Below are positions 2,109-46,233 of a stretch of DNA of 56,624 nucleotides, piece by piece (position 1 is the stretch's first letter; every line of letters begins with the position of its first letter). The translations under genes were made by a program, and so were the position numbers. The DNA comes from a virus (lineage: Duplodnaviria > Caudoviricetes), in IMG/VR virus record IMGVR_UViG_3300032250_000366, positions 1 through 56,624 of that record; one strand, written 5' to 3'. Below the pieces are notes generated by a model, which had not been told where the DNA came from, did not search any database, and worked only from the letters and a program-made list of their open reading frames with translations.

Positions 2109-2342
2109 TTGCTTAACTTAACTGAACTTGGGGTAGAAGTTTTTATGAAAAGATCTAAATCAAAAAATTTAGATTTATTCTGGAACAATTACTCCCTTAT
2201 CATTTGGAAAAAAAACAACTCTGGATTTACTAACAAAAAGGGCTTGTTTAGAAAAAATGAATGGGGTATTGCAGAAGAGTTTGCAATTACTGACGACGGG
2301 CTTTGGAAGCTTCCACTACAATATGTCAAAAATTTTAAATAG
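2109..2342 (+). CDS. hypothetical protein
   Basis: ORF track; TTG start; overlaps the whiB start. Confidence 0.55.
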   Translation: MLNLTELGVEVFMKRSKSKNLDLFWNNYSLIIWKKNNSGFTNKKGLFRKNEWGIAEEFAITDDGLWKLPLQYVKNFK

Positions 2343-2631
2343 TTTACGATTAGATAAAGACTCATTGCAATGGCAGGACCTAGCACTTTGCCTTGGCATG
2401 GAGACAAATCTGTTTTTTGATTCTTATGAAACCGATCCAAATATAGCTAAAAGCATAGACCAGGCATGCATGTCATGTCCAGTTATATCAATGTGCTATA
2501 AGTATGGTGTAGAGTCAGACAACTATGGGGTTTGGGGAGGAGTTTATTTAAGCTCTGGTACACCAGATAAATCAAAGAACTCACACAAAACCAAAGAAGT
2601 AAATAAAAGATTGAAGAATTTACATGGCTAA
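2323..2631 (+). CDS. whiB: WhiB-family Fe-S transcription factor
   Basis: W-x5-C...LFF...C-x2-C-x5-C and GVWGG turn motif; start moved to MSKIL at 2323. Confidence 0.9.
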   Translation: MSKILNSLRLDKDSLQWQDLALCLGMETNLFFDSYETDPNIAKSIDQACMSCPVISMCYKYGVESDNYGVWGGVYLSSGTPDKSKNSHKTKEVNKRLKNLHG

Positions 2632-9996: not shown

Positions 9997-10017
9997 TTTT
10001 TATTAAGGCTTGGGGTT

Positions 10018-10242
10018 ATGGAAAAATTTAGAAAGCTTTTAGATAATGCATATACATTCCTGCCTAAAATGTATCAGGGGGTTGAAGTCCCAGAATATGA
10101 TAAAGCAGTAGACCTAACCGTTCATACTAAAGCACCTGGGAAATGGCTTTTAATTGATTTAGAAACTGGACAAGAATACATTGGCAGTAAAGATCCAAAT
10201 AAATATGGTAAATGGATGAGGCTAAAGGATAAAGATGCATAG
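10018..10242 (+). CDS. hypothetical protein
   Basis: ORF track. Confidence 0.65.
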   Translation: MEKFRKLLDNAYTFLPKMYQGVEVPEYDKAVDLTVHTKAPGKWLLIDLETGQEYIGSKDPNKYGKWMRLKDKDA

Positions 10243-12191: not shown

Positions 12192-12843
12192 GCTAAAAAC
12201 AATTGAAGGTTTTATAAACCAAGAGGATGCTGATTTTTTTATAAAGTGGATAGATGAAAACTACCCAGATAAGACTAAGTTCAGACACAGACTTGGCGTA
12301 GCTTTTAATAAGGGTCTTGCAGTTAGAGCAGTATTCCCAGATGAAAAACCAGCAACTCTTTTTAAAGACATAGAAGAAATTTGCATGAAGTATGCAAATA
12401 AATTTATGGATGCACAAAATGCGTTTCTCCCAACAGATGAAACTCAATACTTTTATGGATTTTCATTAACAAGATTAACTAAAGATATTCAATTAAGAAT
12501 ACACCAAGATGTACATGGAGACTTTCCGTCTTTATCATATAGTGGAGTTTTGTATCTTAACGACGACTATGAAGGTGGGGAAGCAACATTCTTGGAAGAG
12601 TTTACTCCAGAATCATTTTTCCCTTTATACGAAGACTCTATGGGCGGCCTCTGCTTTAAGCCCAAGGCTCTAGATTTATCACTATTCCCTTCTAGCTTAT
12701 GGCATGGTGGTAAAAGAATTACAGACGGAGTAAAGTACGCAATAATTTTTTGGGCAACATCAGATGAAACAAAAGCCTTTGAAGGATTTGATTCTGATCG
12801 TGTTCTAGAATTAATTAATTACAAGCCAGTAGCTCCAGAATAG
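12184..12843 (+). CDS. 2OG-Fe(II) oxygenase, P4H-like
   Basis: HQD...LYLNDDYEGGE...WHGG...KY. Confidence 0.85.
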   Translation: MDKLKTIEGFINQEDADFFIKWIDENYPDKTKFRHRLGVAFNKGLAVRAVFPDEKPATLFKDIEEICMKYANKFMDAQNAFLPTDETQYFYGFSLTRLTKDIQLRIHQDVHGDFPSLSYSGVLYLNDDYEGGEATFLEEFTPESFFPLYEDSMGGLCFKPKALDLSLFPSSLWHGGKRITDGVKYAIIFWATSDETKAFEGFDSDRVLELINYKPVAPE

Positions 12844-12846
12844 TCC

Positions 12847-12875
12847 TTGACGAAACAGCTACTAAATACTATAAT
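12847..12875 (+). promoter_or_regulatory. sigma70-type promoter for tRNA-Asn/tRNA-Lys/katG unit
   Basis: TTGACG-N17-TATAAT. Confidence 0.75.
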
Positions 12876-12885
12876 TGTATTATAG

Positions 12886-12958
12886 TGCCCCATAGCTCAG
12901 CTGGTAGAGCGCCAAACTGTTAATTTGGATGTCCCTGGATCGAGACCAGGTGGGGCAG
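12886..12958 (+). tRNA. tRNA-Asn(GUU)
   Basis: Acceptor TGCCCCA/TGGGGCA; CCAAA-CTGTTAA-TTTGG. Confidence 0.92.
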
Positions 12959-12959
12959 C

Positions 12960-13032
12960 GTTCCTATAGCTCAGCTGGTAGAGCAGCAGACTTTTAATCT
13001 GCGGGTCGATGGTTCGATACCATCTGGGGACA
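12960..13032 (+). tRNA. tRNA-Lys(UUU)
   Basis: Acceptor GTTCCTA/TGGGGAC; GCAGA-CTTTTAA-TCTGC; GGTTCGA T-loop. Confidence 0.93.
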
Positions 13033-13067
13033 CTAATAAATGTAACACCAAACAGAAAGAGAAAAAA

Positions 13068-16494: not shown

Positions 16495-17070
16495 ATGAAT
16501 AAAGTAATTAATAAAAAAAATGGTATATGGGAATGGCATGACGTTCTAGAAAGTCCAACTGCTTTAATTGATGGAATAGAAGATCATAGGTGGGAATACT
16601 ACACTAATAAAGGTGGAGGAGAGACAATAATCGGTAGAGCATCTATACTGCATAAAGGTGAAGAATTCCACGCAAAAGCAACTAAAGCCTTCCTGGACTG
16701 CGTATCAGAATATTCTTCATGCAACGGATTAAGCTTTAATGATGATAACGTTGGCACAGATTGGCTTCTGGTTCGAGAATATAATACTGGATCTAAGATG
16801 TCTGCTCACAATGATGCCTATAGCTATGTAAAGAAAGATGGGAATCCAGTAAAACCATCTTTGACAGCAATACTGTATTTGAATGATGATTATACTGGTG
16901 GAGAAATTGATTTTATACATGATGATGTAAAAATAAAACCTAAAGCTGGATCTATGGTAGTTTTCCCAAGCAATAAACAGCATGAGGTTTTAGAAATATT
17001 AAGTGGAAACAGGTATATGACTCAGACGTATGTCTACGAAAATCCAGTTTCTTTTTACGATAAAGACTAA
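16495..17070 (+). CDS. 2OG-Fe(II) oxygenase, P4H-like
   Basis: HND...LYLNDDYTGGE...HEV...RY. Confidence 0.85.
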   Translation: MNKVINKKNGIWEWHDVLESPTALIDGIEDHRWEYYTNKGGGETIIGRASILHKGEEFHAKATKAFLDCVSEYSSCNGLSFNDDNVGTDWLLVREYNTGSKMSAHNDAYSYVKKDGNPVKPSLTAILYLNDDYTGGEIDFIHDDVKIKPKAGSMVVFPSNKQHEVLEILSGNRYMTQTYVYENPVSFYDKD

Positions 17071-18903: not shown

Positions 18904-19569
18904 ATGAATGCAATAAAGATGGCAGAAGAAATTTGGTATTTTGAAGATGCTTTAGATGACGCAGAAGAAGTCCTAGAGCTTGTTACTGACTGGGATAGTA
19001 CGCCTAATCAAGACTACATGCTTATGTCTAGAGTAAACACAAAATCATATTTAGATGCTACAGATGATGCAATTTTTAAATGCCTGGACGTATGGTATAA
19101 AAACCATATAAACATAAGTGCTGAAAAATATAAAATTGCTCAGCACACTTTTATACATAAAAGAGGTCCTGGTGGTGGCTATGGCCCTCACACGGACTTT
19201 ATAGCTATGCCAGATGGCACCTATGAGCAAGTAACTGCTACCATACTTGCCTACCTTTATGATCCAGATAGCTTTGAAGGAGGAGAAATATTTTTCCCAG
19301 ACTATGATGTTACTATTAAGCCAAAGAAAGGCAGCGTTGTGATTTTTGGCCATAAGGTAAAGCATGGGGTAAATGATGTCATATCTGGTGAGAGGTCTTT
19401 GGCAAGCGTATTCCTAGTTAAAGATAAATATTTTTATAAAGATATGGGTGCGGCTGACCCAAAAAATCCTACGGAAGAAGAAGTAAGGTCATTTGCATTG
19501 ATTGCTCCACAGTATGAGGTCAAGAATGCGAATGCAGATATTCTAGAATCAAATAAGGATGTTGACTAA
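18904..19569 (+). CDS. 2OG-Fe(II) oxygenase, P4H-like
   Basis: HTD...AYL...FEGGEIFF...HGV...ER. Confidence 0.85.
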   Translation: MNAIKMAEEIWYFEDALDDAEEVLELVTDWDSTPNQDYMLMSRVNTKSYLDATDDAIFKCLDVWYKNHINISAEKYKIAQHTFIHKRGPGGGYGPHTDFIAMPDGTYEQVTATILAYLYDPDSFEGGEIFFPDYDVTIKPKKGSVVIFGHKVKHGVNDVISGERSLASVFLVKDKYFYKDMGAADPKNPTEEEVRSFALIAPQYEVKNANADILESNKDVD

Positions 19570-20410: not shown

Positions 20411-20968
20411 ATGAATAGCTTTAATATTGTAGATAAAATAGATTCTTCCTTAATGCATATTTCAAATTGCTTAGAAGACCCAGAAAAAATTGTATCTGCT
20501 TTAAAGTCTAAAGAATGGAAAGAAGATCGTGCAGAAGATGGAAAGATTGGTCCATTTACATTTTTTAGAGAGCCAGAGATAGAGTATTATGAGATACTCG
20601 ATGCATTTATGCAGGCAGCAAAGTTGTTTCTGTCTAGCACAGATAAGGATATCGAAGACTACGAAAGAAGGCATCCATTCCACAGAGTAGTTAGCTGGGA
20701 AGTGTCTCCAAGCACATTAGTTCAACATCAAGACAGATGGGTTACTAAGGGTGAGCAGGTATCTCCAGAGATAAGTTTAAGCATGTACCTGACTGATGAT
20801 TATGATGGTGGAGAGCTGGTATTTAGTACCCTTGGTAAGAAAATTAAGCCTTCAGCTGGCGACATATTGGTCTTTGATTCTAATACTTTACATGGTACTG
20901 AGACATATTTAGGTGGAAGAAGAATGACTATTCAGTGTTTCCTATTTAAGAAAATAATTAATGAGTAA
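20411..20968 (+). CDS. 2OG-Fe(II) oxygenase, P4H-like (tandem paralogue B)
   Basis: HQD...MYLTDDYDGGE...LH...RR; shares SNCL-x-DPEKIVSAL with the previous gene. Confidence 0.85.
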   Translation: MNSFNIVDKIDSSLMHISNCLEDPEKIVSALKSKEWKEDRAEDGKIGPFTFFREPEIEYYEILDAFMQAAKLFLSSTDKDIEDYERRHPFHRVVSWEVSPSTLVQHQDRWVTKGEQVSPEISLSMYLTDDYDGGELVFSTLGKKIKPSAGDILVFDSNTLHGTETYLGGRRMTIQCFLFKKIINE

Positions 20969-25177: not shown

Positions 25178-25407
25178 TATTCATACCTTTCGTTAGAAGA
25201 ATTCATTATATCAGTAGCCACTGACAAAAGATGACGGGTTGCCTGGATTTGTCCAACTATTTGATTATACTCATAGTCAAGAGCACGGAACTCATTTGAT
25301 TCTTGTTCCTCAAATAACTCCATCTCATCAGATAGTTTTTCCCTATCTTGTTCTAAACTAATTAGATGTAACTTCATGTACTCTAGAAACTTAGATGACT
25401 TAGTCAA
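25177..25407 (-). CDS. hypothetical protein; 3' end encodes the next promoter
   Basis: TTG start after GGAGG; LLSVATDIM codons spell TGTCAG-N10-TATAAT. Confidence 0.55.
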   Translation of the reverse strand: MTKSSKFLEYMKLHLISLEQDREKLSDEMELFEEQESNEFRALDYEYNQIVGQIQATRHLLSVATDIMNSSNERYE

Positions 25408-25557
25408 AATAACCCTCCGCCCATAGTCCTTGTAAAAAATCTTGTGCTTTCCACAAATTAGTATGCAAAGCTTTATAATCATCTGTATCAAGAACCTTTA
25501 GGGCTTCTTGGATTGCATCGATCATGTTATCTACATCTGTCATTTCATATCCTAACA

Positions 25558-25710
25558 CTATGCCACCTCGTATTCATGCAAATAGTTTAGTACATTGTGA
25601 ATAATGCAATCACAATCTTCCCCACCCATGTTATCCATAAAGTCTAGATGACTAAAGTTATCCTCATAGATTATATTAATTACTTTATCAAATAGTTCTA
25701 TTGTGCTCAT
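25558..25710 (-). CDS. hypothetical protein
   Basis: Start MSTIELF after GGAGG. Confidence 0.55.
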   Translation of the reverse strand: MSTIELFDKVINIIYEDNFSHLDFMDNMGGEDCDCIIHNVLNYLHEYEVA

Positions 25711-26480
25711 GCCTCCACCTTTTCTGTAGATTCCAATAATACCATGTGGGTCTGACATTTTTTCATAGCCTCTTCATCTCTCCATGAACCCTCGCTACAT
25801 TCAGAGCAGAATTGACCACAATCATTTTCGCAATAGTCAATGCAATCAAATGATTGGCAAGCATAGCAGCGAGTCTCGTATTCCATAATTTCTTTTACGT
25901 CACCACGGACAATCTCATACTCTCCACCCCAACCTGACTCCTCCTCGTACTCTAAGGTAAGCAGGCAGTTTGGAACAAGATTAGATAGTTTAGTTAGAAT
26001 AGTTACAGCAGGTGACCATGCAGTCTCATACTTATATACAAGCCAGTTGTCATCACCCTCAGACTTATATTCAATTAGTTCTGTGTTTGGATACTTGTCA
26101 TCATCTGATACAGCCACATCCCATTTAGTTCCCCAATTAGAATTGTTCCATGAGTACCAATCCTTTTGAGTCTTGGCAAACTCAACAGACTTAGCAAACC
26201 AATTAGGGTCCTTCATATCTACACCATCACGTGCAGGCTGGCAGGCATACTCCTCATCAGTAATGCCATCATCCTTATATGAATGAATGTTATAGAAAGC
26301 AAAGACAGGATTAGAATAAGTTACTTCTTTAATTTTGGTGGGGAAACCCATAGATGAAATATCACCCATACCATAAGTCTCTTGTGCTAATACAAAAGGC
26401 TTATTCAATCTATCCTTAATCATATCTACCTCAGACTTAGGTCCTTGAATAGTTAATGTGTTATACACCCAATTTGGCAT
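25707..26480 (-). CDS. DUF1281/YubB ferredoxin-like-domain protein
   Basis: MPNWVYNTLTI start, DWYSWNNSNWGTKWD, YETAWSPA motifs. Confidence 0.7.
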   Translation of the reverse strand: MPNWVYNTLTIQGPKSEVDMIKDRLNKPFVLAQETYGMGDISSMGFPTKIKEVTYSNPVFAFYNIHSYKDDGITDEEYACQPARDGVDMKDPNWFAKSVEFAKTQKDWYSWNNSNWGTKWDVAVSDDDKYPNTELIEYKSEGDDNWLVYKYETAWSPAVTILTKLSNLVPNCLLTLEYEEESGWGGEYEIVRGDVKEIMEYETRCYACQSFDCIDYCENDCGQFCSECSEGSWRDEEAMKKCQTHMVLLESTEKVEA

Positions 26481-26771
26481 ATTATATCCTTTCGTTGATA
26501 TGTGATAATTATACATTGGACCACTGACAAATGGAATACTATTTGGGTGTGTTTCACACCACATTTTGTATGCATGTGGTCAAAGTCATAAAATTCCAGG
26601 CGATTTGCTATTGACTTCTTAAAAGAAATATTTTACCCTTATTTTTTGCGGGCCGATCCAGATTTGTCAAGCTCTTATACAGGCTGCTATGGGTTCACCA
26701 ACGAAAGTAAAAGAACCATGCTTTATTTAACCCCTGGCCCAATGGACTGTTAGGGGCACCCTTGATTTAAT

Positions 26772-27167
26772 TTATGCTTCTACCCTAGAGTATTTATTAA
26801 TGAATGAGTCTAATGTAATTGTAAAGATGGGCTCATCCATCATGCCCTTGACCTTGGTATCTTCTTCCCACGAGGCTTCCTCATGAAGACTGAAGGTCCC
26901 TGAGCGCCAATCGATAACAGGAATTTTGTGCTCATTGTCTAGGATGTTATTAACTGTTAAGCCCCAGCCTGTAGTCTCATGCCAGTTGTCTCCAATTAGA
27001 TTAGAGATAACAATACGTGTTGCATATGATTCATCGGTCCAGCGAGGACGTGCCTTATCTACTGCCTCTGCAAGATTTGAAAGCATCTCGTGTCCAGCCC
27101 AGTGTCCATATAGAATAATCGTTTCATCATTAGATTGCTTGAATCCAAAGTTTGCTCTGTCGCCCAT
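26772..27167 (-). CDS. hypothetical protein
   Basis: MGDRANF...LYGHWAG ORF. Confidence 0.7.
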   Translation of the reverse strand: MGDRANFGFKQSNDETIILYGHWAGHEMLSNLAEAVDKARPRWTDESYATRIVISNLIGDNWHETTGWGLTVNNILDNEHKIPVIDWRSGTFSLHEEASWEEDTKVKGMMDEPIFTITLDSFINKYSRVEA

Positions 27168-27168
27168 T

Positions 27169-27378
27169 TTATTCCGCCGTTTCTAGTTGAGGTACCGCTT
27201 CTTCGATTTTGTTTAATTCTACCACTTCGTATGCGACCTTGTCAAGGCCTGCCTTGCTTGCGTTGTAATGGTGACCGCAAAAGAAAAGCTCACCATCTAC
27301 TAGTTTAACCATATACATAGCTTGAGCTGTGCCACATTGATCACAGCCAATCCATCTTGTTAAATCTTCTGTTGTCAT
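27169..27378 (-). CDS. small zinc-binding protein
   Basis: CDQCG...LFFCGHH. Confidence 0.65.
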   Translation of the reverse strand: MTTEDLTRWIGCDQCGTAQAMYMVKLVDGELFFCGHHYNASKAGLDKVAYEVVELNKIEEAVPQLETAE

Positions 27379-27522
27379 AGTGCCCCGCCTTCAATCATTT
27401 CGGAAAGACGGTCAAGAATCCAAGAGTCGATATCAGCAATATCAATCTCTGAAAGCTTCTCCATCATCTCTTCACGAGCAAACTTGTACCCGTCTTCAAA
27501 ACCATCTCTGTAATCTGACACT

Positions 27523-27738
27523 TTATCTCCTATTGTAAATTTCTGTTGGCTCGTAGTCTGATGTATAACTTTCAGTTAAATTATACTTATCACGAATACG
27601 ACTCACCTTCTCAATACTACCAGTTCCTACATTGAAAGTCAATGGTGACATTGCTACTGGGTCCAGCCCAGTTATCTGTGCATCCCAATAGGCTCTCTCC
27701 ATGGAGAGCCTATCAGGAGCGGTGAGTTCAAAGTACAT
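27523..27738 (-). CDS. hypothetical protein
   Basis: ORF track; TAATG coupling. Confidence 0.6.
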   Translation of the reverse strand: MYFELTAPDRLSMERAYWDAQITGLDPVAMSPLTFNVGTGSIEKVSRIRDKYNLTESYTSDYEPTEIYNRR

Positions 27739-28361
27739 TAGTATGCACCTTCCTCTACTCGGTCAATATCAAAGTTATTAATAGACATCTCTGATGCATA
27801 TGAATCAACAGTTAAGTTGTCCATAACAAACTGCTCAACGGCATCAAACGAATCTCCGCCAGTCAATTCAACCTCAACAGTTGCATCAACACGAACCCAA
27901 ACAGTTACTTCAATCTCCTTAGTTAAAGGAATGTCAAACATCTCTGCAATTTCCGTAAGCGCTTCTTGGTCATCTGAGTTCTCAAAGTTGTCGTGGATAA
28001 ATGTGCGAAGTTGTGATTCTTTCTTATACCACTCGTTCTGCTTATTTGTTAGGTTCTTATTAACCCAAACCATATGACGAATATCTGATTCAGTATAAGT
28101 CTTGTTGGTAACGACGTCGTTCTCAATCCAGTCAAGTGTCATAACCTGTGGTGTAGTTGTTTCTTCCATTGTTTCCTCTTTCGTTGTTGTTGAAGGTGCA
28201 ATTGTAGCATCGACCACTGACAAAAGGATGCAAGCGGTCCCACATCTGCATGTGAGGTCCATCACACCATTTGGCCATCCGTACCCATCTTTAAATGTAT
28301 ACTCGATCAATGCGTCGCAATCACCTGGGCATATCCATGTGTACTTTTGGTATGTTGTCAT
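27738..28361 (-). CDS. hypothetical protein with two in-frame starts (28361 leaderless; 28169 with own promoter and SD)
   Basis: MTTYQKYTWIC at 28361; MEETTTP at 28169. Confidence 0.6.
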   Translation of the reverse strand: MTTYQKYTWICPGDCDALIEYTFKDGYGWPNGVMDLTCRCGTACILLSVVDATIAPSTTTKEETMEETTTPQVMTLDWIENDVVTNKTYTESDIRHMVWVNKNLTNKQNEWYKKESQLRTFIHDNFENSDDQEALTEIAEMFDIPLTKEIEVTVWVRVDATVEVELTGGDSFDAVEQFVMDNLTVDSYASEMSINNFDIDRVEEGAY

Positions 28362-28467
28362 GACGAGAATTATACAGGACCACACTGACATTTGTCTATA
28401 GATTCCAGGGACTTTTTGATGTGACACTTAACACATTTTTTCGTCCCTAAGTATTGCGGGCATTTTG

Positions 28468-28541
28468 CGATCCATAACGGACTTGAACCGTCGACCTCTA
28501 CCGTGACAGGGTAGCGCTCTAACCAACTGAGCTAATGGACC
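28468..28541 (-). tRNA. tRNA-Asp(GUC)
   Basis: Acceptor GGTCCAT/ATGGATC; CTACC-CTGTCAC-GGTAG; GGTTCAAGTCC. Confidence 0.93.
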
Positions 28542-28548
28542 AATATGG

Positions 28549-28577
28549 TGAGCAGTTTTAAATCTTGCTCAGGATTT
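28549..28577 (-). ncRNA. small H-type pseudoknot motif, copy 2
   Basis: AAATC-C-TGAGCA-A-GATTT-AAAAC-TGCTCA. Confidence 0.6.
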
Positions 28578-28583
28578 TTTTAA

Positions 28584-29591
28584 TTAAAAAGCAGAAACTA
28601 ATTTTTTAATTTTATTTTTTTCTGCGGTAATGATTGGGTCAAATCCTGATGCACCTGCCATAAGTGTTTCAGAATTTCCACGACCTGAACGATAGTAATC
28701 AAGGCGCTCAGTTAGCGCATTGAATGCGCCCCACTTTGTTCCCTTGATTGTGGCGTTAGTTGGTGAGTTATGATAAAGGTCATCAAGCAAGACAACTTTA
28801 TTTTCCCACTTAGTAAGCGCAACTTTTGCAGCATCATCAGCAGGCTTTGGATAAATTGTCTGAATCAACTTTGAAAATTCAGCATCGGTGATTGACTGGT
28901 TAAACATCGCCTGCGCTTCCTTTTCAAATTCATCAAAGTAACCAAGAGCAAGACCAAGAGTCTCACGAGCAACTTGAATGCGACCTTCAACAGATTGCGT
29001 GTGGCGAATCTTGAAAGATTGCTTGGCCTGCTTCATTGCAAGGTTAAGAGTGTTTTGGCATACAACACGAACAGGAGTAACAGCAGCCTGAACAGCAACA
29101 GAGCCGTCGTGTGATGTCCATACGATTAGATAAAGTTTAGTTTCATCGTTGGCGCCTTGTGGGTCAAGAACCATGGTGCGAGGAATTTCAACAGTACCAA
29201 ATACAACTTTACCCTTACGCAATGAGCCAGCAGATTCCCAGCGGCAGTCAGCGTTGGCATCATGAATTGCATCAGCGAATGCAAACAATTCTTCATTCTG
29301 CACAGGCTTGTAGCGCTTGCCAACAGTTGCAAGAACATCAGTTCCGCCATTGAATGGATTATCACGCAACACGAGAGATGCAGTAGAAACATCATTCCAT
29401 GATTCTGGAATGTGCTCAGCGATTGGAGAAAGACGAACATTCCAATTTGCCAACTTTGCTTCTTCAAGCATTAGGGCAGTTGTAACTTCTTCGTCTTTTG
29501 TAAAAATACGGTTTGCAAGATTGTGCCAAGCAGGAGCGCCACGCAACGCAAATGCAACTTCGCCGTTTTCAACTTCGAGATTGTGAGCCAT
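28584..29591 (-). CDS. DUF932-family protein
   Basis: MAHNLE...PAWH, YKPVQNEELF, ESAGSL, TSHDGS, TPVRVVCQNTL, RHT, GTKWGAFNALTE. Confidence 0.85.
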   Translation of the reverse strand: MAHNLEVENGEVAFALRGAPAWHNLANRIFTKDEEVTTALMLEEAKLANWNVRLSPIAEHIPESWNDVSTASLVLRDNPFNGGTDVLATVGKRYKPVQNEELFAFADAIHDANADCRWESAGSLRKGKVVFGTVEIPRTMVLDPQGANDETKLYLIVWTSHDGSVAVQAAVTPVRVVCQNTLNLAMKQAKQSFKIRHTQSVEGRIQVARETLGLALGYFDEFEKEAQAMFNQSITDAEFSKLIQTIYPKPADDAAKVALTKWENKVVLLDDLYHNSPTNATIKGTKWGAFNALTERLDYYRSGRGNSETLMAGASGFDPIITAEKNKIKKLVSAF

Positions 29592-29710
29592 ATATTTATT
29601 ACCTTTCGTTTGATTAGTTGTAAGTATAACAGACCCCACTGACATTGTCTAGGATTAGTTACTATATGTCCGATTTGATCCATGTGAGTAATCTCACAAA
29701 ATTCCAGGGG

Positions 29711-29742
29711 TTTTCCACAAGCTCACTTAAACCTGTGGATAA
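29711..29742. promoter_or_regulatory. inverted DnaA-box pair
   Basis: TTTTCCACA-N14-TGTGGATAA. Confidence 0.7.
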
Positions 29743-29774
29743 CCCCGCACATTATTGCGGGCCAAAAAATAAGC

Positions 29775-29794
29775 GGGGCAGAATTAACTGCCCC
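29775..29794 (-). terminator. intrinsic terminator
   Basis: GGGGCAG-N6-CTGCCCC followed by TTATTTTTT on - strand. Confidence 0.7.
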
Positions 29795-29800
29795 ACCTAT

Positions 29801-30028
29801 TTACTTGTACAATGATTTTACGTAATTTACTGTTTCCATAGTAACAAACGCCGCTGATGTTTTCTTTTTATTTTTTTGATCATAGACAAAAGCTTTAACA
29901 TTTCCATCAAACCGCTTTAGGTTTGAGAATACAAGTTCTTTGAGGCTTTCATTATCGTAGCCCTCATCTGAATAGATTGTTAAATCATTTGCTTTTACTT
30001 CGTCGTACATTTCAATCTTGAAACGCAT
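29801..30028 (-). CDS. hypothetical protein
   Basis: ORF track. Confidence 0.65.
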   Translation of the reverse strand: MRFKIEMYDEVKANDLTIYSDEGYDNESLKELVFSNLKRFDGNVKAFVYDQKNKKKTSAAFVTMETVNYVKSLYK

Positions 30029-30062
30029 TTCTTTACCTTTGTTAGTAGTTGTCCCCGAAGGG

Positions 30063-30090
30063 AGAGCAGTTTGGCGACATACTCAGGTCG
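30063..30090 (-). ncRNA. small H-type pseudoknot motif, copy 3
   Basis: CGAC-C-TGAGTA-T-GTCG-CCAAAC-TGCTCT. Confidence 0.6.
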
Positions 30091-30099
30091 TTGGATTAT

Positions 30100-30516
30100 T
30101 TAGAGATACTTAGCAATTTGCTTCATTGTAGAAGCATTAACTGTTTCCTCATCTGTCATCTTGAGAATTGTGAGAGCGTTTGTGATGTCCTCTACAATTT
30201 CATTGTATGTGTGCTGGTGCATGATTGTGAAATCACGCTCTGGCTCTTTAGGGAAATCGCTTTCCTTTACAATTAAATCAAAATCAACATTGAGAGAGTT
30301 GTTCCAAGAGCGATAGTTTGTGCGGAAGTTTTCAGCCTTCTTGATGTTTGCAATAGCAAAATCTTGAACTTCCTTGCGCCACTTCTCTCTTGCCTTCTCA
30401 TACTTTGCTTCGTTTGCACCTTGCTCAGCATAGTCTTTCTTGATTGTTGCTAACTTTGTTTCCAAAGCCTTGATTACCTTTGGTGTTGCCACCTTTACTG
30501 TGATTGCTCTTGACAT
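30100..30516 (-). CDS. hypothetical protein
   Basis: ORF track; AACGAAAGAGG leader. Confidence 0.75.
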   Translation of the reverse strand: MSRAITVKVATPKVIKALETKLATIKKDYAEQGANEAKYEKAREKWRKEVQDFAIANIKKAENFRTNYRSWNNSLNVDFDLIVKESDFPKEPERDFTIMHQHTYNEIVEDITNALTILKMTDEETVNASTMKQIAKYL

Positions 30517-30650
30517 TTTTCCTCTTTCGTTGGTTGGTTGATGTTATGAGTAGTATAGCAGGGGGGTCTGACAAACCCCGTAGGGTGGAAGTTCTTACTT
30601 AGGACATTGTGCGAGATACTTCCGAAACTGCACCTGTTTCCATTATTTAG

Positions 30651-30830
30651 TTATGATGCCAAAGTGCTTGCTGATACTGATGTCCAGCGAGTTTCCTTGT
30701 TTGGCATTTCTAGCAACACACGCACCGAGCCAGATGCTTGTGGGTGGATTTCTTTAATCACACCTGTCTTTTTTGACTTTAGGGTGGTGAATAAATCTCC
30801 AACCTGATACAACTTATCTTGTACTGTCAT
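30651..30830 (-). CDS. small SH3/KOW-like protein
   Basis: Start MTVQDK; YQVGDLF...TGVIKEI...VRVLL. Confidence 0.55.
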   Translation of the reverse strand: MTVQDKLYQVGDLFTTLKSKKTGVIKEIHPQASGSVRVLLEMPNKETRWTSVSASTLAS

Positions 30831-31062
30831 TTGCTTCCTTCTTTCTGTGTAGGGTAGTATTGTAGCATTAGGGACTGACATCTATCAACCCCTATCTCAT
30901 TATTTGAGAAAGTTATTGTGTGATTAGTATCACAAGTAGTCGGTTAAGTCTTGATCCATTATCTCATTGACATCTACGCCTTGAGATTCTGCAATTGCAT
31001 CCCATAGGTCGGACTCCGTGAAGTCTCCGCTAGGGTGCATCTCAGCTAAGATAGAATAAAGA

Positions 31063-31338
31063 TTACTCATCGTAGTCCTCCTGTGGTAGCCATGCGTCTA
31101 AGTGGTGAGCATCAACGATAGCCGATGCGGGGCATGAGTCTTGCCCACGCCATAAGATACCGCCAGGCAAGTCAATCATTCTATCGTAGTCCTCCTCATA
31201 GTATGCATCAATAGCATCTATGCAAGGTTGCACCATAGCAACGGGGACGGGTGGGTAATGATTACCCTGTAAGTGATAAGCAAGTCCTGCCTCTAGTGAT
31301 AAGTCATCTGCAAGTGATAATGCTGTTGTGTATCCCAT
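31063..31338 (-). CDS. hypothetical protein
   Basis: Start MGYTTAL; HLQGNHYPPVP motif. Confidence 0.65.
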   Translation of the reverse strand: MGYTTALSLADDLSLEAGLAYHLQGNHYPPVPVAMVQPCIDAIDAYYEEDYDRMIDLPGGILWRGQDSCPASAIVDAHHLDAWLPQEDYDE

Positions 31339-31340
31339 TA

Positions 31341-31565
31341 TTAGTTTCCCTTCGTGATAGATAGTTCTGCCCAAGAAAAACCTGTATTAGCAACTGTTAA
31401 TACATCTGCAATTGCTAGTGCAGAGTGTGTTGCTTCTGAACACATCTTTACAAGTTCATCCTCAGATAAAGATAATAGGGCTGGAAGTAGATTAGAGTCA
31501 ATCTTATCTAGGTCAATAGTAGCAACAAACTCTACTGTGTGTGGTACTGTCATTACATTACTCAT
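31341..31565 (-). CDS. hypothetical protein
   Basis: ORF track; AACGAAAGG leader. Confidence 0.65.
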   Translation of the reverse strand: MSNVMTVPHTVEFVATIDLDKIDSNLLPALLSLSEDELVKMCSEATHSALAIADVLTVANTGFSWAELSITKGN

Positions 31566-31676
31566 GTTATGCCTTTCGTTGTTGGTATAAGAGTATTATA
31601 GCGTATGGGTCCGACATTACCTAATCCATTTACGGCGTGTCGCAGCTTTTGTGAGAATGATCACAAAATTCCAGGG

Positions 31677-31708
31677 TTATCCACACCTCTACTTAAACCT
31701 GTGGATAA
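31677..31708. promoter_or_regulatory. inverted DnaA-box pair
   Basis: TTATCCACA-N14-TGTGGATAA, both perfect. Confidence 0.75.
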
Positions 31709-32094
31709 ACCCTCACATATGTGCGGGTGCCGACTTTGTCAAGTCGACACACCTTTACATTTTATAAAACATGTATCCAATTAAAATAAATGGGGCCACT
31801 GATATTAATATCAAAACGGATCCGCCAATTGCACCGATTACATCATACAATTTCTTTCCCCTTGTGTTTAACCTTTCGCCTATATTTCTTTTTATTGCGT
31901 ACAGGTTGCGCCGCATTGCTACGGCGTAACTCTTGTATTCGTTTTACTTTATCTTTAAGGCTCATTTATCCACTCCGCCAATTCTTGTAAATCTTGCTCA
32001 CACGCACACGCAGAAATTTCTATCATGTCTTCATGCTGAACAATAAACGCCGAGTCATTACAAGCCTCGCAATAAATAGCTGACATTTCTAAAA

Positions 32095-32289
32095 TCATTT
32101 TTCTACCTTTCCAAAAATTGTTGTGTAGTTGCTAGCTTCGTGAAATCTTACAACATCAAAACGCGGATTATCTTTTGCAAACATCTCCGCAAAATCATTT
32201 ACGATTTTAGAAAATAGCGCTGGATGTGTTTTGTTGCTTGCATACTTTAAAATTTCTGCAGTTGCTACATAGTCTTTGCGAGTCATCAT
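32095..32289 (-). CDS. hypothetical protein
   Basis: MMTRKDYV...DNPRFD-x2-RF. Confidence 0.65.
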   Translation of the reverse strand: MMTRKDYVATAEILKYASNKTHPALFSKIVNDFAEMFAKDNPRFDVVRFHEASNYTTIFGKVEK

Positions 32290-32489
32290 TTTTGTGTAAC
32301 CTTTCCATTTCGGTAGAAGTTCTTAGTGTAAAGTTTTCCGCTAGGGATTAAAAGATTTACAGTTGAGTATTCGTTAGCCCAGCCCCAATCAACAAATGCA
32401 AGAAATGCGGTAAATGCTTCTAGAGCGTCCTCATAGTTCTTGTTGAAGTGGATAGGGTTGCCATCATAGGCGACAGTTATTTGGTACAT
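32286..32489 (-). CDS. hypothetical protein
   Basis: ORF track; AACGAAAGGG leader. Confidence 0.65.
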   Translation of the reverse strand: MYQITVAYDGNPIHFNKNYEDALEAFTAFLAFVDWGWANEYSTVNLLIPSGKLYTKNFYRNGKVTQK

Positions 32490-32825
32490 AGGTTTTCCCT
32501 TTCGTTTGTTATTTGGAAATTATAGCAGAGGGGTCTGACAAATTAGAGGGCGCCTTCTTGAAATAAGCCTATCTCAAGAGTGAGCAATTCCTCTGGGGTG
32601 GCTTGATCCAAATCCACCCACCCAGCGCCTTCATCATCAAGGCGGAAAAATTCAATGTGTCCCATTAGTGTTGTTCCTCGCAATCTTTAGAATAATCAAA
32701 CTCGCAAAAGTAGCAACCCATAAACTCTAGGTGTTCCTCGCAATAATACTTAAACTGACTTTCATCACAGCAAAAAAATTGCTCATCTGCGATTTCATAG
32801 AAATCGGTTTTATCAATTATGTTCA

Positions 32826-33026
32826 TTAGTCACCAACCTTCACCGCTACATAACGGTATGTATCTTTAATCGAATTAGTAGGGCGCACCTGCACCTTGTA
32901 AGTGTCTGCACCTGAATACCAGACATCATCATTTTTTTCGGCTGAGATAATCTCGCCTTTTACGGAATTAGAGTAATACATTTTTCCCACTAGGAGACTT
33001 TCGACATTATAGACATTTGCTGACAT
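32826..33026 (-). CDS. hypothetical protein
   Basis: ORF track; AACGAAAGG leader. Confidence 0.65.
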   Translation of the reverse strand: MSANVYNVESLLVGKMYYSNSVKGEIISAEKNDDVWYSGADTYKVQVRPTNSIKDTYRYVAVKVGD

Positions 33027-33763
33027 TAGTTGTCACCTTTCGTTTGTGTGTTTGTAATTGTAGCAGAGAGGACTGACAAGGCTTGAGCCGTTGAGGCCTT
33101 GCGTGTTGCCTCTACATGGGCACGGAACTCGTCTAGGTTCATTACTGACCTTCTTTCGTTGTTGTTATAGTAGTATTATAGCCTATGGCACTGACATTTA
33201 TGACATTACTAGCCAGTAAGTCCAAGATGTGAGACGCTCAAGCAATGTGTTTTACATCACATCAAAATGTCCTAATTGTCTGTCAAATCGACACGCCGCA
33301 GAATTCGGGGGATTTTATAACTTGTTCATAACGACACGCCCGACCCCGTAGCTATGTGGGGGATGCCGACTTTTGTCAAGTCGACACGCCGTATTTATTT
33401 AATTTTATCTAGAATCTTTTCTAGTTCTTTTAATTGTTCTAGGTTAAGGTGATCTAGTTGAATCGCTTTCTCAAATCCGAATAGGTCTTCCATTAGTTAC
33501 CCTTTCTTAGTTCTCTAAAGTCTTCTTTTACCATGTGCCACATCATGAGCCCCATGTAGAGGGCGGGGATAGCAATAGCCAATTGCACTAGGCTAGTTAG
33601 TAGTCTATTCATTAGTTAGTTACCTCTAGCAATTCTCTATGTGCATCTCCATTGTTAGAACACTCATAGCAGTAGGTCTCGGTAGGCACACCCAATAGAA
33701 AAGCATCTACACCGCTATAGACTAGTTCGGTTGAATCGCATACATCTATCTTACATTTTCTCA

Positions 33764-33931
33764 TTAGTTCCCTACCTTTATGTTCTGAATGTTAGCGGTG
33801 AATTTTGTTTTCTTACCTAGGTCGCTATCGTTAAGAGATGCTATTAGGTGGTCAATAGCCTTGACCTCATGCGCTACATTGTCGATAGATAGTAAGCGAG
33901 AGCCTTGCCAAATTGAGTAGGTGATAGTCAT
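33764..33931 (-). CDS. hypothetical protein
   Basis: Start MTITYSIW after GGGAG. Confidence 0.55.
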   Translation of the reverse strand: MTITYSIWQGSRLLSIDNVAHEVKAIDHLIASLNDSDLGKKTKFTANIQNIKVGN

Positions 33932-33933
33932 TA

Positions 33934-34113
33934 TTAGTTCTCCCATGTTAGTGTGAATAGTTTGGCTAGTTCTTCATCATCTGCATCATCAAAATCATCA
34001 ACGGGTGGTTGTTCGGTTTCTTCTTCATCTAGGTAAGAGTATGCGTCTGCAACATCTGATTGAATAGTGTCCCACTTAGAGACCGAGTTACTTTCGTATG
34101 AGTATGCGTACAT
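33934..34113 (-). CDS. small acidic protein (59 aa)
   Basis: MYAYSYESNSVSKWDTIQSDVADAYSYLDEEETEQPPVDDFDDADDEELAKLFTLTWEN. Confidence 0.6.
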   Translation of the reverse strand: MYAYSYESNSVSKWDTIQSDVADAYSYLDEEETEQPPVDDFDDADDEELAKLFTLTWEN

Positions 34114-34211
34114 TTTTTTCTTCTTTCGTTAGTTCGTTATGTTGTAATTATAGCGTATAGGTCGGACATTTAAGGGACTTAGGGGGGTGTGTCTATGTGA
34201 TTCGCATCACA

Positions 34212-34367
34212 TTAGATGCAAGCGACACACTCGCAACCCTTAGAGCGGATTAGGTACTTTAGTACCTCTTTACGGGTGTATGTGTCTAATCCATAAGATG
34301 ATGACACGCCACCATTGTGATACTCATGCACGATAGTGCTAAAGAGTTGTTCTGTAAGTTGAGCCAT
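34212..34367 (-). CDS. first gene of the early region (51 aa, Cys-rich end)
   Basis: MAQLTEQLFSTIVHEYHNGG...GCECVACI; AACGAAAGGAG leader. Confidence 0.6.
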   Translation of the reverse strand: MAQLTEQLFSTIVHEYHNGGVSSSYGLDTYTRKEVLKYLIRSKGCECVACI

Positions 34368-34634
34368 TTTATGACTCCTTTCGTTTGTTTGTTATAGTAT
34401 AAGCGTAACACGGGGGACTGACAAATAGCAACTCCAAATTCGGACATTATGGACAAATCAAAAAAATACTTTGTGATGCTCATCACATTGACCATATGCT
34501 CACGCTCAATATGTGCGGACTATCCCAAATGTCCGTTTCTATAAAATACGTGTATCGTACAAATTAAAAATTTATTAACATTTTGTGAAATTTCAAATAG
34601 TAGTTGACTGAACTTATAATGCTATACTGTTTAT

Positions 34635-37278: not shown

Positions 37279-38127
37279 TTAATGCTCTTTAAATTCACCC
37301 ATGAATTTACTAGAAAGCTCTGGACCTTCTAGGCCAGAGGCCTGATACTTATGAATAAGCTCTCTGGTAAATTGTGGGTTTTCTTTTAGCGGTCTCATCC
37401 ATGTACCTATAAAAGCATCAAGTTCCATGGTATCCATATCTTTAAGCTGCTCGTAATACTCTGGTGATTTATAATTATAAAATGTTCCAGGGTTATCTTC
37501 TGCCTTCAAGACAAAGTTCGAAAATGCATATCTTCTTCCAGATGTAACTGGCATAACTCCATGGGCATGTGGATCAAAAGCACCATGAATAACAAGGTCG
37601 CCTCTTTCTGGTTTTATCGTTAGAGCATCTTCTCTTGAAATTCCGTCATTTCTGTTTCCATCTTTATCGATGTTTGCGTAAAAAATTTCTCCGCCTTCAA
37701 AATCACCAAAATATGCTACTAGACCATAATCCAGCTCGCAGCATGTTTTCCATACATCTACCTGAGACAATCTGTGGCATTCCCCTTTTCCAGGAGAATC
37801 AGAATGAGTAAACATGCCCTCATTCATTTCTGGAACAATCACAAGTACGTTTGCCTGTGGATGCATTACATACTCTGGGTATAATAATTCGCTAGCTTTT
37901 TCCCAAAGTGGGTGCAGCTCTCTAAGTGGAGGACTGACCTTATTGGCATACCAGTTTATTAAGGTGTCTGTGTAGTTTCCGCTAAGATCATATTCTTTTA
38001 ATGCGTCTTCTACCGTTTTGCACTCTTCATCTGTAAAAAATCCTTTATATATAAAGACGCCGCTTGGAGTACCATAGTCATCTGGGAAAAATGAAGCCTT
38101 GATACAATCTTCTCTGTCATAAAACAT
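37279..38127 (-). CDS. 2OG-Fe(II) oxygenase, P4H-like
   Basis: HSD...AYFGDFEGGEIFY...HGV...RRY. Confidence 0.85.
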   Translation of the reverse strand: MFYDREDCIKASFFPDDYGTPSGVFIYKGFFTDEECKTVEDALKEYDLSGNYTDTLINWYANKVSPPLRELHPLWEKASELLYPEYVMHPQANVLVIVPEMNEGMFTHSDSPGKGECHRLSQVDVWKTCCELDYGLVAYFGDFEGGEIFYANIDKDGNRNDGISREDALTIKPERGDLVIHGAFDPHAHGVMPVTSGRRYAFSNFVLKAEDNPGTFYNYKSPEYYEQLKDMDTMELDAFIGTWMRPLKENPQFTRELIHKYQASGLEGPELSSKFMGEFKEH

Positions 38128-44008: not shown

Positions 44009-44464
44009 ATGTCTAGACAGATGCTGGTACCCTTAAGGCTATTAGCCTTGTCAACAGACCCAGCATTTGGGCAAGTAGGAGAAGTATATATAAATACTAC
44101 TACAAAAAACTTACGTGTTCACAATGGAACTACTTGGATAGAGCTTACTCCACCAAGCACAGATCCAACTCCATTCTATATGCATACGCATACATTTGAT
44201 GGAGACGTACATACAATAGATATACAAAATCAAATTGATTTCAAAAATCTTGATAACCCTAGTACACCAGGACTAGTTTTGCCTGAGATAGTTGGATATG
44301 ATGGAGGACTGCCAGGAAGCAACCTAAACAATCCTTCATTTATTGAAGAGAGCTTATTCGATGGCGGTCTTTTTGACGGAACACAAGAAATACAAGAAGA
44401 AGTTTTGGGAGGCGGAGGCTCAGAAGACTTTGAAGCACCATCACTTGACGGAGGAAATTCATAA
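44009..44464 (+). CDS. virion structural protein
   Basis: GEVYINT...W; DGG repeats. Confidence 0.55.
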   Translation: MSRQMLVPLRLLALSTDPAFGQVGEVYINTTTKNLRVHNGTTWIELTPPSTDPTPFYMHTHTFDGDVHTIDIQNQIDFKNLDNPSTPGLVLPEIVGYDGGLPGSNLNNPSFIEESLFDGGLFDGTQEIQEEVLGGGGSEDFEAPSLDGGNS

Positions 44465-46233
44465 TGGCATATAAAATTCAACTAAGAAGAGATATTGCAG
44501 CAAACTGGGTAATCAATAACCCATTACTTTTAAATGGTGAAATAGGAATAGAAACAGATACACTTAAGTTTAAAATAGGAAACGGTTCGCAAAGATGGAA
44601 TAGTCTATCCTCATATGCGTTGAATCCTGGACTACCAAACGGTGTTGCAACATTAAACTCAGATGGCAAAATACCTTTAAGCCAACTTCCAGATCAGATA
44701 TCATTAGATACAGAAGCACTGACAGCTATTCAAAATGCACTTGGAGAAATAAATACTTCAGACATAGAAGAAGGAAGTAATCTTTATTTTACAAACTCTA
44801 GAGCTGTAAACGCTGTAGTATCTCTTTTCGACACAGCAGGATCTGCAGAAAGCGCTCTTAATGCCGCAAAAATAGATGCAACTAATAAAGTAAACGCAGC
44901 TTTAACTACAGCTGCAGATGACGCTACAGATAAAGCAAATGCAGCAATTTTGTCAGCGCAAGCAGATTCAGAATTATTTACAACTTCAGCAATTAATTCA
45001 CTTAGCACTTCTGATATAGAAGAAGGATCAAGACTATATTTTACTAATGCAAGAGTAGAAAATATAGTAGGCCCACTTATATCAGAAACTAGAGGCTATG
45101 TAGACCAAGAAGTATTAAGCGCTAAAGCCTATACTGATTCAGCATTGGAGGCTTTCGAGCCACCTCTTTCCAATATATCATCTACTTCAGATGTTCCAGA
45201 AGGAGGAAATTTATACTTTACTAATGCAAGAGCTATATCTGCAACAAATAATGCAAGAACTGCAGTTCTAGTTTCAGCTTTAACCGCAGTAGACGATTTA
45301 AGAACAGAAATTCAGACAAATCTAACAAACTATATTCCTCTTTCCGAAGTTAATGTTTTTAATGGAATTTCTGGACTAGACTCATCTGGTAAAATATTAG
45401 AATCTTCAGTACCTTCTTCAATTGCAAGAACAAATGCTCCAGTTTTTTCTGGTGATGTTACAGTAGAAAATAATTTAATAGTTGATGGAAACTTAACTAT
45501 TAATGGAACTACAACTACCGTAGATACTGCAAATTTTTCTACAGCTGACGCCCTTATATATCTTGGAGAAGGAAACTCTGGAAACACCATAGACCTTGGA
45601 TTTGTTTCTTCGTTTAATGACGGTACATATCAACACTCAGGACTAGTTAGAGATGCATCTGAGAACAAATGGAGACTCTTTAAGGGAGTATCTGATGAAC
45701 CAACAACAACTATTAATTTTAGCCAAGGATCTCTTGACTCCCTTCAGGTAGGAGGATTTGAGGCATCATCTGCATCAATAGGATCTGTAACAAATGATGA
45801 AATACAAAGACTTAGCGGATTGACATCTGGAGTTCAGTCACAAATAGATTCGATTACAGCAAATTATGCAACCACTATAGATCTTACAGGTGCAATTGCA
45901 GATGCTAATGAGTATACAGATACTGCTGTAAATGCAGTCTCTAACTCCTTGGGTGATTATGTACCAGAGTCTGAAAGAAATCAAAATAATGGATATGCTG
46001 GACTAGACTCAAGTGGCAAGATTCTTGTTTCTGCAGTCCCAATAATATCTAACTCAATGATTGAAAATAATGCAATAACAATTAATGGCACTTCTGTTGC
46101 ACTTGGTGGATCAGTTATTACTGGGTATACAAACGGAATATCTGGATCAAATATAAATAAGATTACTTATGGAACAAATGTAACACCACCTTCAAGCGGA
46201 AATTCTGCTGGAGACATTTACATTCAATACTAA
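44464..46233 (+). CDS. tail fibre protein with Mtd-N/hyaluronidase-N-like head
   Basis: IQLRRD-x3-W-x3-NP-x-L-x2-GEIGIETDT-x-KFKIGNG; three EGSNLYFTNAR-type repeats. Confidence 0.75.
   Translation: MAYKIQLRRDIAANWVINNPLLLNGEIGIETDTLKFKIGNGSQRWNSLSSYALNPGLPNGVATLNSDGKIPLSQLPDQISLDTEALTAIQNALGEINTSDIEEGSNLYFTNSRAVNAVVSLFDTAGSAESALNAAKIDATNKVNAALTTAADDATDKANAAILSAQADSELFTTSAINSLSTSDIEEGSRLYFTNARVENIVGPLISETRGYVDQEVLSAKAYTDSALEAFEPPLSNISSTSDVPEGGNLYFTNARAISATNNARTAVLVSALTAVDDLRTEIQTNLTNYIPLSEVNVFNGISGLDSSGKILESSVPSSIARTNAPVFSGDVTVENNLIVDGNLTINGTTTTVDTANFSTADALIYLGEGNSGNTIDLGFVSSFNDGTYQHSGLVRDASENKWRLFKGVSDEPTTTINFSQGSLDSLQVGGFEASSASIGSVTNDEIQRLSGLTSGVQSQIDSITANYATTIDLTGAIADANEYTDTAVNAVSNSLGDYVPESERNQNNGYAGLDSSGKILVSAVPIISNSMIENNAITINGTSVALGGSVITGYTNGISGSNINKITYGTNVTPPSSGNSAGDIYIQY

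Follow-up and report, generated by a model that had tools for sequence, protein, structure and literature searches.

The window analysed here, a stretch of 56,624 bp that comprises the whole of the IMG/VR record IMGVR_UViG_3300032250_000366 (estimated completeness 47%; guanine plus cytosine (GC) content approximately 35-42%), carries on its minus strand a block of small genes preceded by 14 predicted promoters of a common type. In these sites a hexamer TGTCRG, in one case the variant TGTCCG, is followed after exactly 10 nt by a -10 hexamer of the form TANNNT. The 14 predicted promoters are a real and conserved class. Their sequence and geometry correspond to those of the actinobacterial promoters that are served by the transcription activator PafBC, and we lean slightly towards the view that the phage borrows PafBC from its host, so that the 14 sites would be promoters of the sigma factor SigA at which PafBC replaces the contact to the -35 region.

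A search for TGTCRG-N10-TANNNT on both strands of the window revealed 18 exact matches compared to 1.01 expected from 100 dinucleotide shuffles (maximum 4, none of the 100 reaching 18). Fourteen of the 18 matches are located on the minus strand between the positions 25205 and 34423, the region and strand named in a preliminary description of this DNA. One of these matches (33004-33025) was regarded as a chance occurrence because it overlaps the start-codon region of the gene 33026-32826 and lacks a leader. Setting it aside leaves 13 promoters, and the TGTCCG variant at 34147-34168 brings the total back to 14. The 14 minus-strand sites within 9.2 kb that had been claimed were therefore found again, as 13 TGTCRG elements and one TGTCCG element, and the three sites quoted as examples (starting at 26508, 31595 and 32519) read as given. 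When spacings from 6 to 15 nt were scanned on the coding strand of the block, a distance of 10 nt yielded 14 matches and each other distance none or one, while no match was detected on the opposite strand at any of these spacings. Taken by itself, the hexamer TGTCRG was counted 16 times on the coding strand of the block and not once on the opposite strand.

Every one of the 14 sites precedes a gene, in agreement with the preliminary description. A leader of the type GAAAGR or AAAAGG was identified 12-23 nt past the -10 hexamer in 13 of them, with the first ATG 20-35 nt past the -10 hexamer; the remaining site (28369) is followed by an ATG after 7 nt and has a leaderless geometry. The sites at 25205, 25736 and 28201 are located within upstream open reading frames (ORFs), as had also been described. 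Nine of the 14 sites possess the TGn of an extended -10 promoter. The statement that the sites lack a normally spaced TTGACA was found to apply to ten of them. In the other four, a simple sigma-70 scan detected weak -35-like hexamers (TTGTCA-17-TATACT at 34424, TAGACA-18 at 28398, TAGACA-17 at 29651 and TTGATA-18 at 30888), the positions of which carry no information across the related phages described below.

Canonical promoters of the form TTGAC-N17-19-TANNNT were detected 27 times across the window (9.45 expected), consistent with the earlier proposal that the rest of the window relies on promoters of the TTGAC-N17 type. Good copies precede transfer RNA (tRNA) genes (1966, 12847 and 22144) and the genes of an S8 peptidase (4820), the glutathione peroxidase (17437) and the ribonucleotide reductase (39698). 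Given the canonical sites ahead of tRNA and auxiliary genes on the one hand and the TGTCRG block on the other, the phage uses two promoter classes. Within the block, simple scans for intrinsic terminators (10 versus 7.3) and for canonical promoters (43 versus 32.7) yielded numbers that were not above those of the shuffles.

The sequence of the phage element and its spacing of 10 nt are identical to the published PafBC consensus, which agrees with the proposed match to the actinobacterial DNA-damage promoter. According to the work on mycobacterial DNA-damage promoters (PMC8635444), the consensus obtained in vivo by chromatin immunoprecipitation sequencing (ChIP-seq) is tGTCgg(N10)tA(N3)T with its upstream part at -23 to -28, the promoters have no -35 motif, and the GTC triplet, which is conserved across actinobacteria, is read by the residues R46 and R50 of PafB; the mechanism is described there as sigma adaptation. 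It was furthermore reported that single-stranded DNA activates PafBC from a length of 6 nt upwards and that PafBC joins the RNA polymerase only on promoters of the PafBC type (PMC11804915).

The architecture of the PafBC-dependent promoters (RecA-NDp, recA P1-type) as given in these two papers (PMC8635444, PMC11804915), namely TGTC(R)G at -28 to -23, 10 nt, TANNNT and no -35 consensus, recurs in the phage. The 13 TGTCRG elements and the TGTCCG element of the window, all of which contain GTC, lie at about -28 to -23, the distance to a SigA-type TANNNT is exactly 10 nt both in the block and in 80 related loci, and no -35 consensus is present across the relatives, although weak -35-like hexamers accompany the four window sites mentioned above. 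The phage sites differ from the PafBC promoters of hosts in being phage-borne, in their number (14 in 9 kb on one strand, ahead of small genes without known function), in the preference for A over G at the fifth base of the element and in the frequent TGn. In addition, 13 of the 14 phage sites have a leader with a Shine-Dalgarno sequence, whereas many of the PafBC-type sites detected in host-type genomes are leaderless.

The conservation of the sites was assessed with the help of the DUF932 protein encoded in the block (gene 29591-28584; Pfam 9.6e-57), for which 247 relatives were detected in IMG/VR. The best 80 of the 247, which are 91-95% identical and located on contigs of up to 120 kb, are referred to as related loci (1.317 Mb in total), and five records that are 98-100% complete and 115-120 kb in length are referred to as complete relatives. 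All five complete relatives harbour 13-16 copies of the pattern clustered within 9-12 kb on one strand, with 0-3 further matches per record elsewhere; the backwards control yielded 0-2 matches per strand (1-3 per record). Of the copies identified across the 80 related loci, 1149 are on the gene strand and three on the other strand, corresponding to 686 unique sites. A spacing of 10 nt accounts for these 1149 copies, while any other spacing was found at most 112 times. Among the 686 unique sites the fifth base of the element is A rather than G in 640, and the T and the G of the extended -10 promoter are present in 65% and 78%, respectively.

Upstream of the DUF932 gene, 55 unique sequences share an invariant TGTCAG as well as a TG and a -10 hexamer that are invariant or nearly so, whereas the spacer varies. 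Since the element is kept while the spacer varies, selection on the element is responsible rather than recent copying. A recently duplicated cassette, the repeats of which would have no common regulatory meaning, might explain that the leader ACGAAAGR is repeated together with the promoter. However, such a duplication is contradicted by the spacers and flanks, which differ from copy to copy whereas TGTCAG, TG and TAnnnT remain unchanged, and by the occurrence of the same class across 80 loci with 686 unique sites, so that we consider it extremely improbable.

A non-circular test, which made no use of the motif itself, took the leader ACGAAAGR together with the best -10 hexamer as its anchor in the window and the 80 related loci. 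GTC was found at -15 to -13 from the -10 hexamer in 369 of the 390 unique leader-anchored sites (TGTCAG in 326, TGTCGG in 32, other hexamers rarely). All six positions of the element carry 1.4-1.7 bits each, compared to at most 0.12 bit in the -35 zone (-23 to -20 from the -10 hexamer), where only a richness in A and T adjoining the element was observed.

The block also contains a second type of repeated sequence. Perfect palindromes TGTGA-N6-TCACA, as bound by regulators of the CRP/GlxR type, occur six times in the window (0.10 expected) and all of them are located in the block (28251-34487). Based on the coordinates, six of the 14 promoters have the centre of a palindrome approximately 63-85 nt ahead of the predicted start point, and the palindrome ahead of the DUF932 gene is conserved in the relatives. 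Another host activator of the CRP/GlxR type that binds upstream might therefore dominate the expression of the block, with TGTCAG as a secondary or unrelated signal. This seems improbable to us, taking into account that the palindrome is found at six of the 14 promoters but the -26 element at all 14, and that the leader-anchored sites possess GTC in 369 of 390 cases. Both inputs are moreover compatible and do not exclude each other.

Information on the host was derived from two proteins of the window with relatives in deposited phages. A tblastn search with the WhiB-family protein against deposited phages matched 167 records, of which 164 are named phages of actinobacterial genera, two are designated "Bacteriophage" and one "Actinomycetia"; the best matches were Streptomyces phages of 125-131 kb. 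The DUF932 protein matched 631 phage records, mostly of actinophages, with the best match in the Streptomyces BE-cluster (50% identity). Because of the WhiB gene, and since the relatives of both proteins are almost confined to actinophages, the window is assigned to an actinophage, the predicted WhiB gene marking an actinobacterial host.

The completeness of 47% together with relatives of up to 120 kb indicates that the window represents half of a phage of approximately 115 kb. When compared to cultured phages by megablast, the block had no match, and papers on Planktophila phages and on COBRA deal with other phage groups. Judging from its sequences, the lineage is uncultured and abundant and infects a low-GC actinobacterium, its hosts probably being the streamlined low-GC actinobacteria of lakes. 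Small shares of the stretch (0.05-0.07) were contained in three runs that are recorded as RNA.

On the host side, candidate genomes were picked by class, size and GC content. The class to which Streptomyces belongs was represented by 301 sampled genomes, and the WYL domain was detected in 299 of them, a tally that includes eight genomes flagged as unpublished (G016, G024, G033, G039, G041, G045, G052 and G272), on which no other statement is based. Twelve small genomes of this class sample (1.3-1.7 Mb, 44-48% GC, as calculated from a 15-kb sample each) served as candidates for the likely host type, and they may be described as acI/Nanopelagicales-like, based on the class-level sample, the genome size and the GC content. 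An adjacent pair of WYL ORFs of approximately 305-338 amino acids each was present in all five of these genomes that were examined (44-47% GC, 1.3-1.5 Mb). The pair of genome G242 aligned over its full length with PafB (1.4e-35) and PafC (1.2e-30) of the Mycobacterium smegmatis RNA polymerase-PafBC structure 7P5X, and, counted from the printed alignment coordinates, its PafB has arginines opposite the residues 46 and 50 of the 7P5X chain.

A RecA match was obtained in 12 small genomes, and in all 12 the strict box was located upstream of recA. In six of them it is directly followed by the palindrome TCGAAC-N4-GTTCGG, which we take to be the LexA (SOS) box of actinobacteria. Two RadA-like loci likewise carry the box. 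Furthermore, according to the match lists, the boxes cluster in one island each in three low-GC genomes, with seven of 13 located within 21 kb in G274, eight of 16 within 39 kb in G242 and eight of 16 within 28 kb in G289. At the island sites the -10 hexamer mostly lies 6-7 nt ahead of the ATG, and among all fetched host-side loci an ATG 5-7 nt past the -10 hexamer was found at 15 of 34 sites. Pfam matches were obtained for eight of ten ORFs behind such sites: two DNA methylases, an SNF2 helicase, a NERD-UvrD helicase, a RecB-like nuclease fold, a GHKL ATPase, a trypsin-like peptidase and a TPR protein. In genomes that resemble the likely host, the box thus marks functional promoters of genes for the handling of DNA. 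The island may represent a damage- or phage-inducible defence or repair island.

In the mechanism that we propose, the SigA-containing RNA polymerase of the host would read the 14 sites via the -10 hexamer TAtAAT, often aided by the TGn of the extended -10 promoter, and the missing -35 contact would be replaced by host PafBC bound to TGTCAG at about -28 to -23, i.e. by sigma adaptation. As PafBC would be active only when holding single-stranded DNA, the block would respond to single-stranded DNA in the infected cell and be switched on or strongly boosted when it appears, for instance from resected phage or host DNA, from replication or from damage. We infer the reading of the phage sites by PafBC, and likewise when the block is expressed, where the single-stranded DNA comes from and which organism is the host. 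By analogy with take-over modules the genes of the block are presumed to be early genes.

A further-reaching scenario, about which we are rather doubtful, would have the phage and its host wired to the same alarm. PafBC boxes would drive recA and the island of methylases, helicases and nucleases in the host, while the phage would have copied the box to place its take-over or anti-defence genes under the signal that also raises the defences of the host, namely the single-stranded DNA arising from the entry and resection of its own DNA; a CRP-like regulator would contribute a second, nutritional input at six of the 14 promoters.

Several points weigh against a dependence of the phage promoters on PafBC. 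The host-side evidence comes from candidate genomes that were selected as described above. In the low-GC genomes the strict pattern is not commoner genome-wide (11-16 matches) than its backwards control (7-16), and the pattern alone is therefore no proof of the use of PafBC. TGn was found in nine of the 14 phage sites but only in seven of 34 host-side sites. Since extended -10 promoters can work without a -35 contact, the phage sites may be active without PafBC. An alarm-dependent programme also looks risky for the first genes of a virulent phage. The first promoter of the block can be read as TTGTCA-17-TATACT as well, and the perfect CRP-like palindromes upstream of six of the 14 promoters suggest that a second activator is involved and that PafBC is not the sole input. 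Finally, the closest cultured relatives possess ordinary -35/-10 promoters in the matching module.

The preliminary description had considered a WYL activator encoded elsewhere in the phage genome as an alternative reader of the sites. No WYL domain was identified in the window or in the five complete relatives (E<=0.1), and a search with a PafB of a low-GC genome revealed no homologue in the window or in four complete relatives, except for one match of 11.8 bits that contains an internal stop. The pafB, pafC and WYL genes for which a search had been suggested at that time were found in the candidate host-type genomes. Regarding the overall interpretation, the promoter class, the PafBC geometry, the assignment to an actinophage and the presence of PafBC in candidate host-type genomes were supported, whereas the phage-encoded WYL activator was not.

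Sigma region 2 (Sigma70_r2) was likewise not detected in the five complete relatives. All five, however, encode a conserved helix-turn-helix protein of 46-48 amino acids with a sub-threshold match to sigma region 4 (Sigma70_r4; 15-22 bits compared to the cut-off of 24.1). Its gene adjoins a RuvC-like gene at a distance of more than 30 kb from the promoter array, and the ORF itself was read in three of the relatives (L217 1491-1631, L218 1438-1584 and L219 1457-1600). An assignment as a phage sigma factor was rejected because the match is below the threshold and the helix-turn-helix is generic. The protein may nevertheless be a binder of TGTCAG.

Such a binder leads to a further explanation, according to which the extended -10 promoters are read by the host RNA polymerase with SigA alone and TGTCAG is the operator of a phage protein without a WYL domain that later shuts the block off or acts as a MotA-like activator. 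The frequency of TGn in the window (9/14) and in the relatives (T in 65% and G in 78% of the 686 unique sites), the small helix-turn-helix protein in all five complete relatives, the resemblance of TTGTCA to a -35 hexamer and the lack of a known function for most proteins of the block would fit this explanation. On the other hand, a factor made by the phage cannot start the block if its genes are the first to be expressed, and the exact coincidence with a system of the host (WYL domain in 299 of 301 genomes, box at recA in 12 of 12) would be left unexplained. Taking furthermore into account that the match of the small protein is weak and generic and that its gene is distant from the array, we consider a phage-encoded binder unlikely and continue to favour the use of host PafBC.

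Phage T4 supplies its own factors for its middle promoters and remodels sigma region 4. The T4 middle promoters resemble the sites described here in forming a class of phage promoters with a normal -10 hexamer, in which an activator box replaces the -35 hexamer (MotA box at -30; "sigma appropriation" by AsiA and MotA, according to PMC8635444). Unlike in T4, the box of the present phage is that of the host, and neither a WYL domain or sigma region 2 (five relatives) nor a PafB homologue (window and four relatives) was found, MotA and AsiA having not been searched for.

The closest cultured phage according to the DUF932 protein (50% identity) is Jay2Jay of the Streptomyces BE-cluster. It shows the same layout, with many short minus-strand units that have their own promoters, a leader of the GAAAGG type and a DUF932 gene; in the BE-cluster such arrays of strong promoters ahead of small genes lie in the terminal repeats. 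In contrast to the block of the window, however, the 14-kb end region of Jay2Jay (positions 1-14000) does not contain any PafBC-type site. Instead, 12 TTG-N20-TAGAST sites were detected there, all of them on the minus strand (0.17 expected) and with ordinary -35/-10 geometry. Among nine cultured phages with DUF932 genes (from Streptomyces, Brevibacterium, Gordonia, Arthrobacter, Mycobacterium and Microbacterium) 0-2 PafBC-type matches were found per phage, which is not above the control. As the cultured relatives have ordinary promoters, the freshwater lineage has replaced the upstream element of the promoters in a module that is similar in other respects. Among the Jay2Jay upstream sequences inspected, many show a GC-rich hairpin and a CCCGGACA-like word ahead of the promoter and a leader of the GAAAGG type behind it.

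The literature on BrxR and CapW, the WYL regulators of defence islands, describes a similar connection of a WYL regulator that senses single-stranded DNA with phage infection. In the low-GC genomes, the genes behind the PafBC-type boxes of the island include those of DNA methylases, helicases and nucleases. BrxR and CapW serve the defence of the host and act mostly as repressors, whereas here the phage would be the user. A study by Rafique et al. (2025) reportedly deals with PafBC and the resistance to mycobacteriophages.

For PafBC and sigma adaptation, a role is known only in the DNA-damage response of the host. A literature search that covered titles and abstracts, with most subscription journals outside its reach, revealed no description of phage promoters of the PafBC class. 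If PafBC indeed served the promoters of this block, this would be the first phage using the class, as far as the searched literature reaches. It would also bear on a question left open in the PafBC papers, that of the origin of the single-stranded DNA by which PafBC is activated in cells. The lineage is abundant, IMG/VR containing 247 contigs related to it, and it probably infects streamlined low-GC lake actinobacteria, so that the infections of a major group of freshwater bacteria would be shaped by the switch.

Table 1. Coordinates of the promoter block, its predicted promoters and further features of the window (pattern scan: detected by the search for the promoter pattern).
Feature	Position	Strand	Remarks
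Block of small genes with 14 promoters of the -26-element type	25205..34423	-	cluster kept in 5/5 complete relatives
Promoter 1, TGTCAG-N10-TACGCT, TGn; alternative reading TTGTCA-17-TATACT	34402..34423	-	leader GAAAGG, ATG 34 nt past -10
Promoter 2, TGTCCG variant, -10 TATAAT	34147..34168	-	leader GAAAGA, ATG 33 nt past -10
Promoter 3, TGTCAG-N10-TATAAT	33175..33196	-	pattern scan
Promoter 4, TGTCAG-N10-TACAAT, TGn	33057..33078	-	pattern scan
Promoter 5, TGTCAG-N10-TATAAT, TGn	32519..32540	-	pattern scan
Promoter 6, TGTCGG-N10-TATAAT	31595..31616	-	pattern scan
Promoter 7, TGTCAG-N10-TACAAT, TGn	30859..30880	-	pattern scan
Promoter 8, TGTCAG-N10-TATACT, TGn	30552..30573	-	pattern scan
Promoter 9, TGn, ahead of the DUF932 gene (29591-28584)	29623..29644	-	TGTCAG invariant in 55 unique orthologous upstream sequences
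Promoter 10, leaderless geometry, ATG 7 nt past -10	28369..28390	-	pattern scan
Promoter 11, within the ORF starting at 28361; would drive the in-frame start at 28169	28201..28222	-	pattern scan
Promoter 12, ahead of a DUF1281_C/Api92-like gene (26480-25707)	26508..26529	-	pattern scan
Promoter 13, in the 3' end of the preceding gene, TGn; recurs in relatives	25736..25757	-	pattern scan
Promoter 14, in the 3' end of the preceding ORF, TGn	25205..25226	-	pattern scan
Extra match, probably chance, not a counted promoter	33004..33025	-	overlaps the ATG of gene 33026-32826, no leader
WhiB-family gene	2257..2631	+	Pfam PF02467, 4.4e-11, above cut-off

According to a hand count, approximately 18 of the 22 bases of promoter 14 are identical to the recA box of the genomes G170 and G274. 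In the region 27738-28390 promoter 10 opens a frame of 207 amino acids and promoter 11 lies inside this frame, serving the in-frame ATG at 28169; this one frame may thus yield a long and a short product.

The word TTATCCACA, presumably the DnaA-box consensus, occurs four times in the window (0.65 expected), with three of the occurrences in the block (29734-29742, 31677-31708). The copy ahead of the DUF932 promoter is located in a stretch that is conserved in the relatives. The window encodes eight tRNA genes, of which the one for tRNA-Asp (28467-28541, minus strand) is located within the block directly downstream of the DUF932 gene, and the other seven are located on the plus strand.

In the host-type genomes the islands of PafBC-type boxes correspond to the positions G274:C1:411676-432683, G242:C1:386084-424809 and G289:C1:431913-459558. 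Two host-side sites resemble the phage promoters in having TATAAT and, in one case, TGn (L207 288-309 from G242 and L208 918-939 from G170). As judged by eye, they are followed by a leader of approximately 25 nt with a ribosome site of the GGAGG type, approximately 300 nt without a long ORF and then a von Willebrand-A-like gene.

Three further ORFs of the phage (13068-15161, 17506-17967 and 6189-6491) encode a catalase-peroxidase (Pfam peroxidase domain, 1.7e-66), a glutathione peroxidase (Pfam 4.1e-43) and a thioredoxin-like protein that was recognised by eye. Neither peroxidase allowed an assignment of the host. A scan of genome contigs with KatG gave approximately 60% identity to many phyla and no single host, and the phage glutathione peroxidase was not found in 11 of the 12 low-GC small genomes, with the best match (50% identity) in G232. 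Five ORFs are predicted to encode 2OG-Fe(II) oxygenases (11040-12191, 16495-17070, 18904-19569, 20411-20968 and 37279-38127), one of which has an additional Asp/Arg hydroxylase domain. Two large proteins open with an Mtd_N domain, the N-terminal domain of the major tropism determinant, and one protein of the tail region contains a PASTA domain (regions noted: 44464-46233, 51518-54043, 46243-48603).

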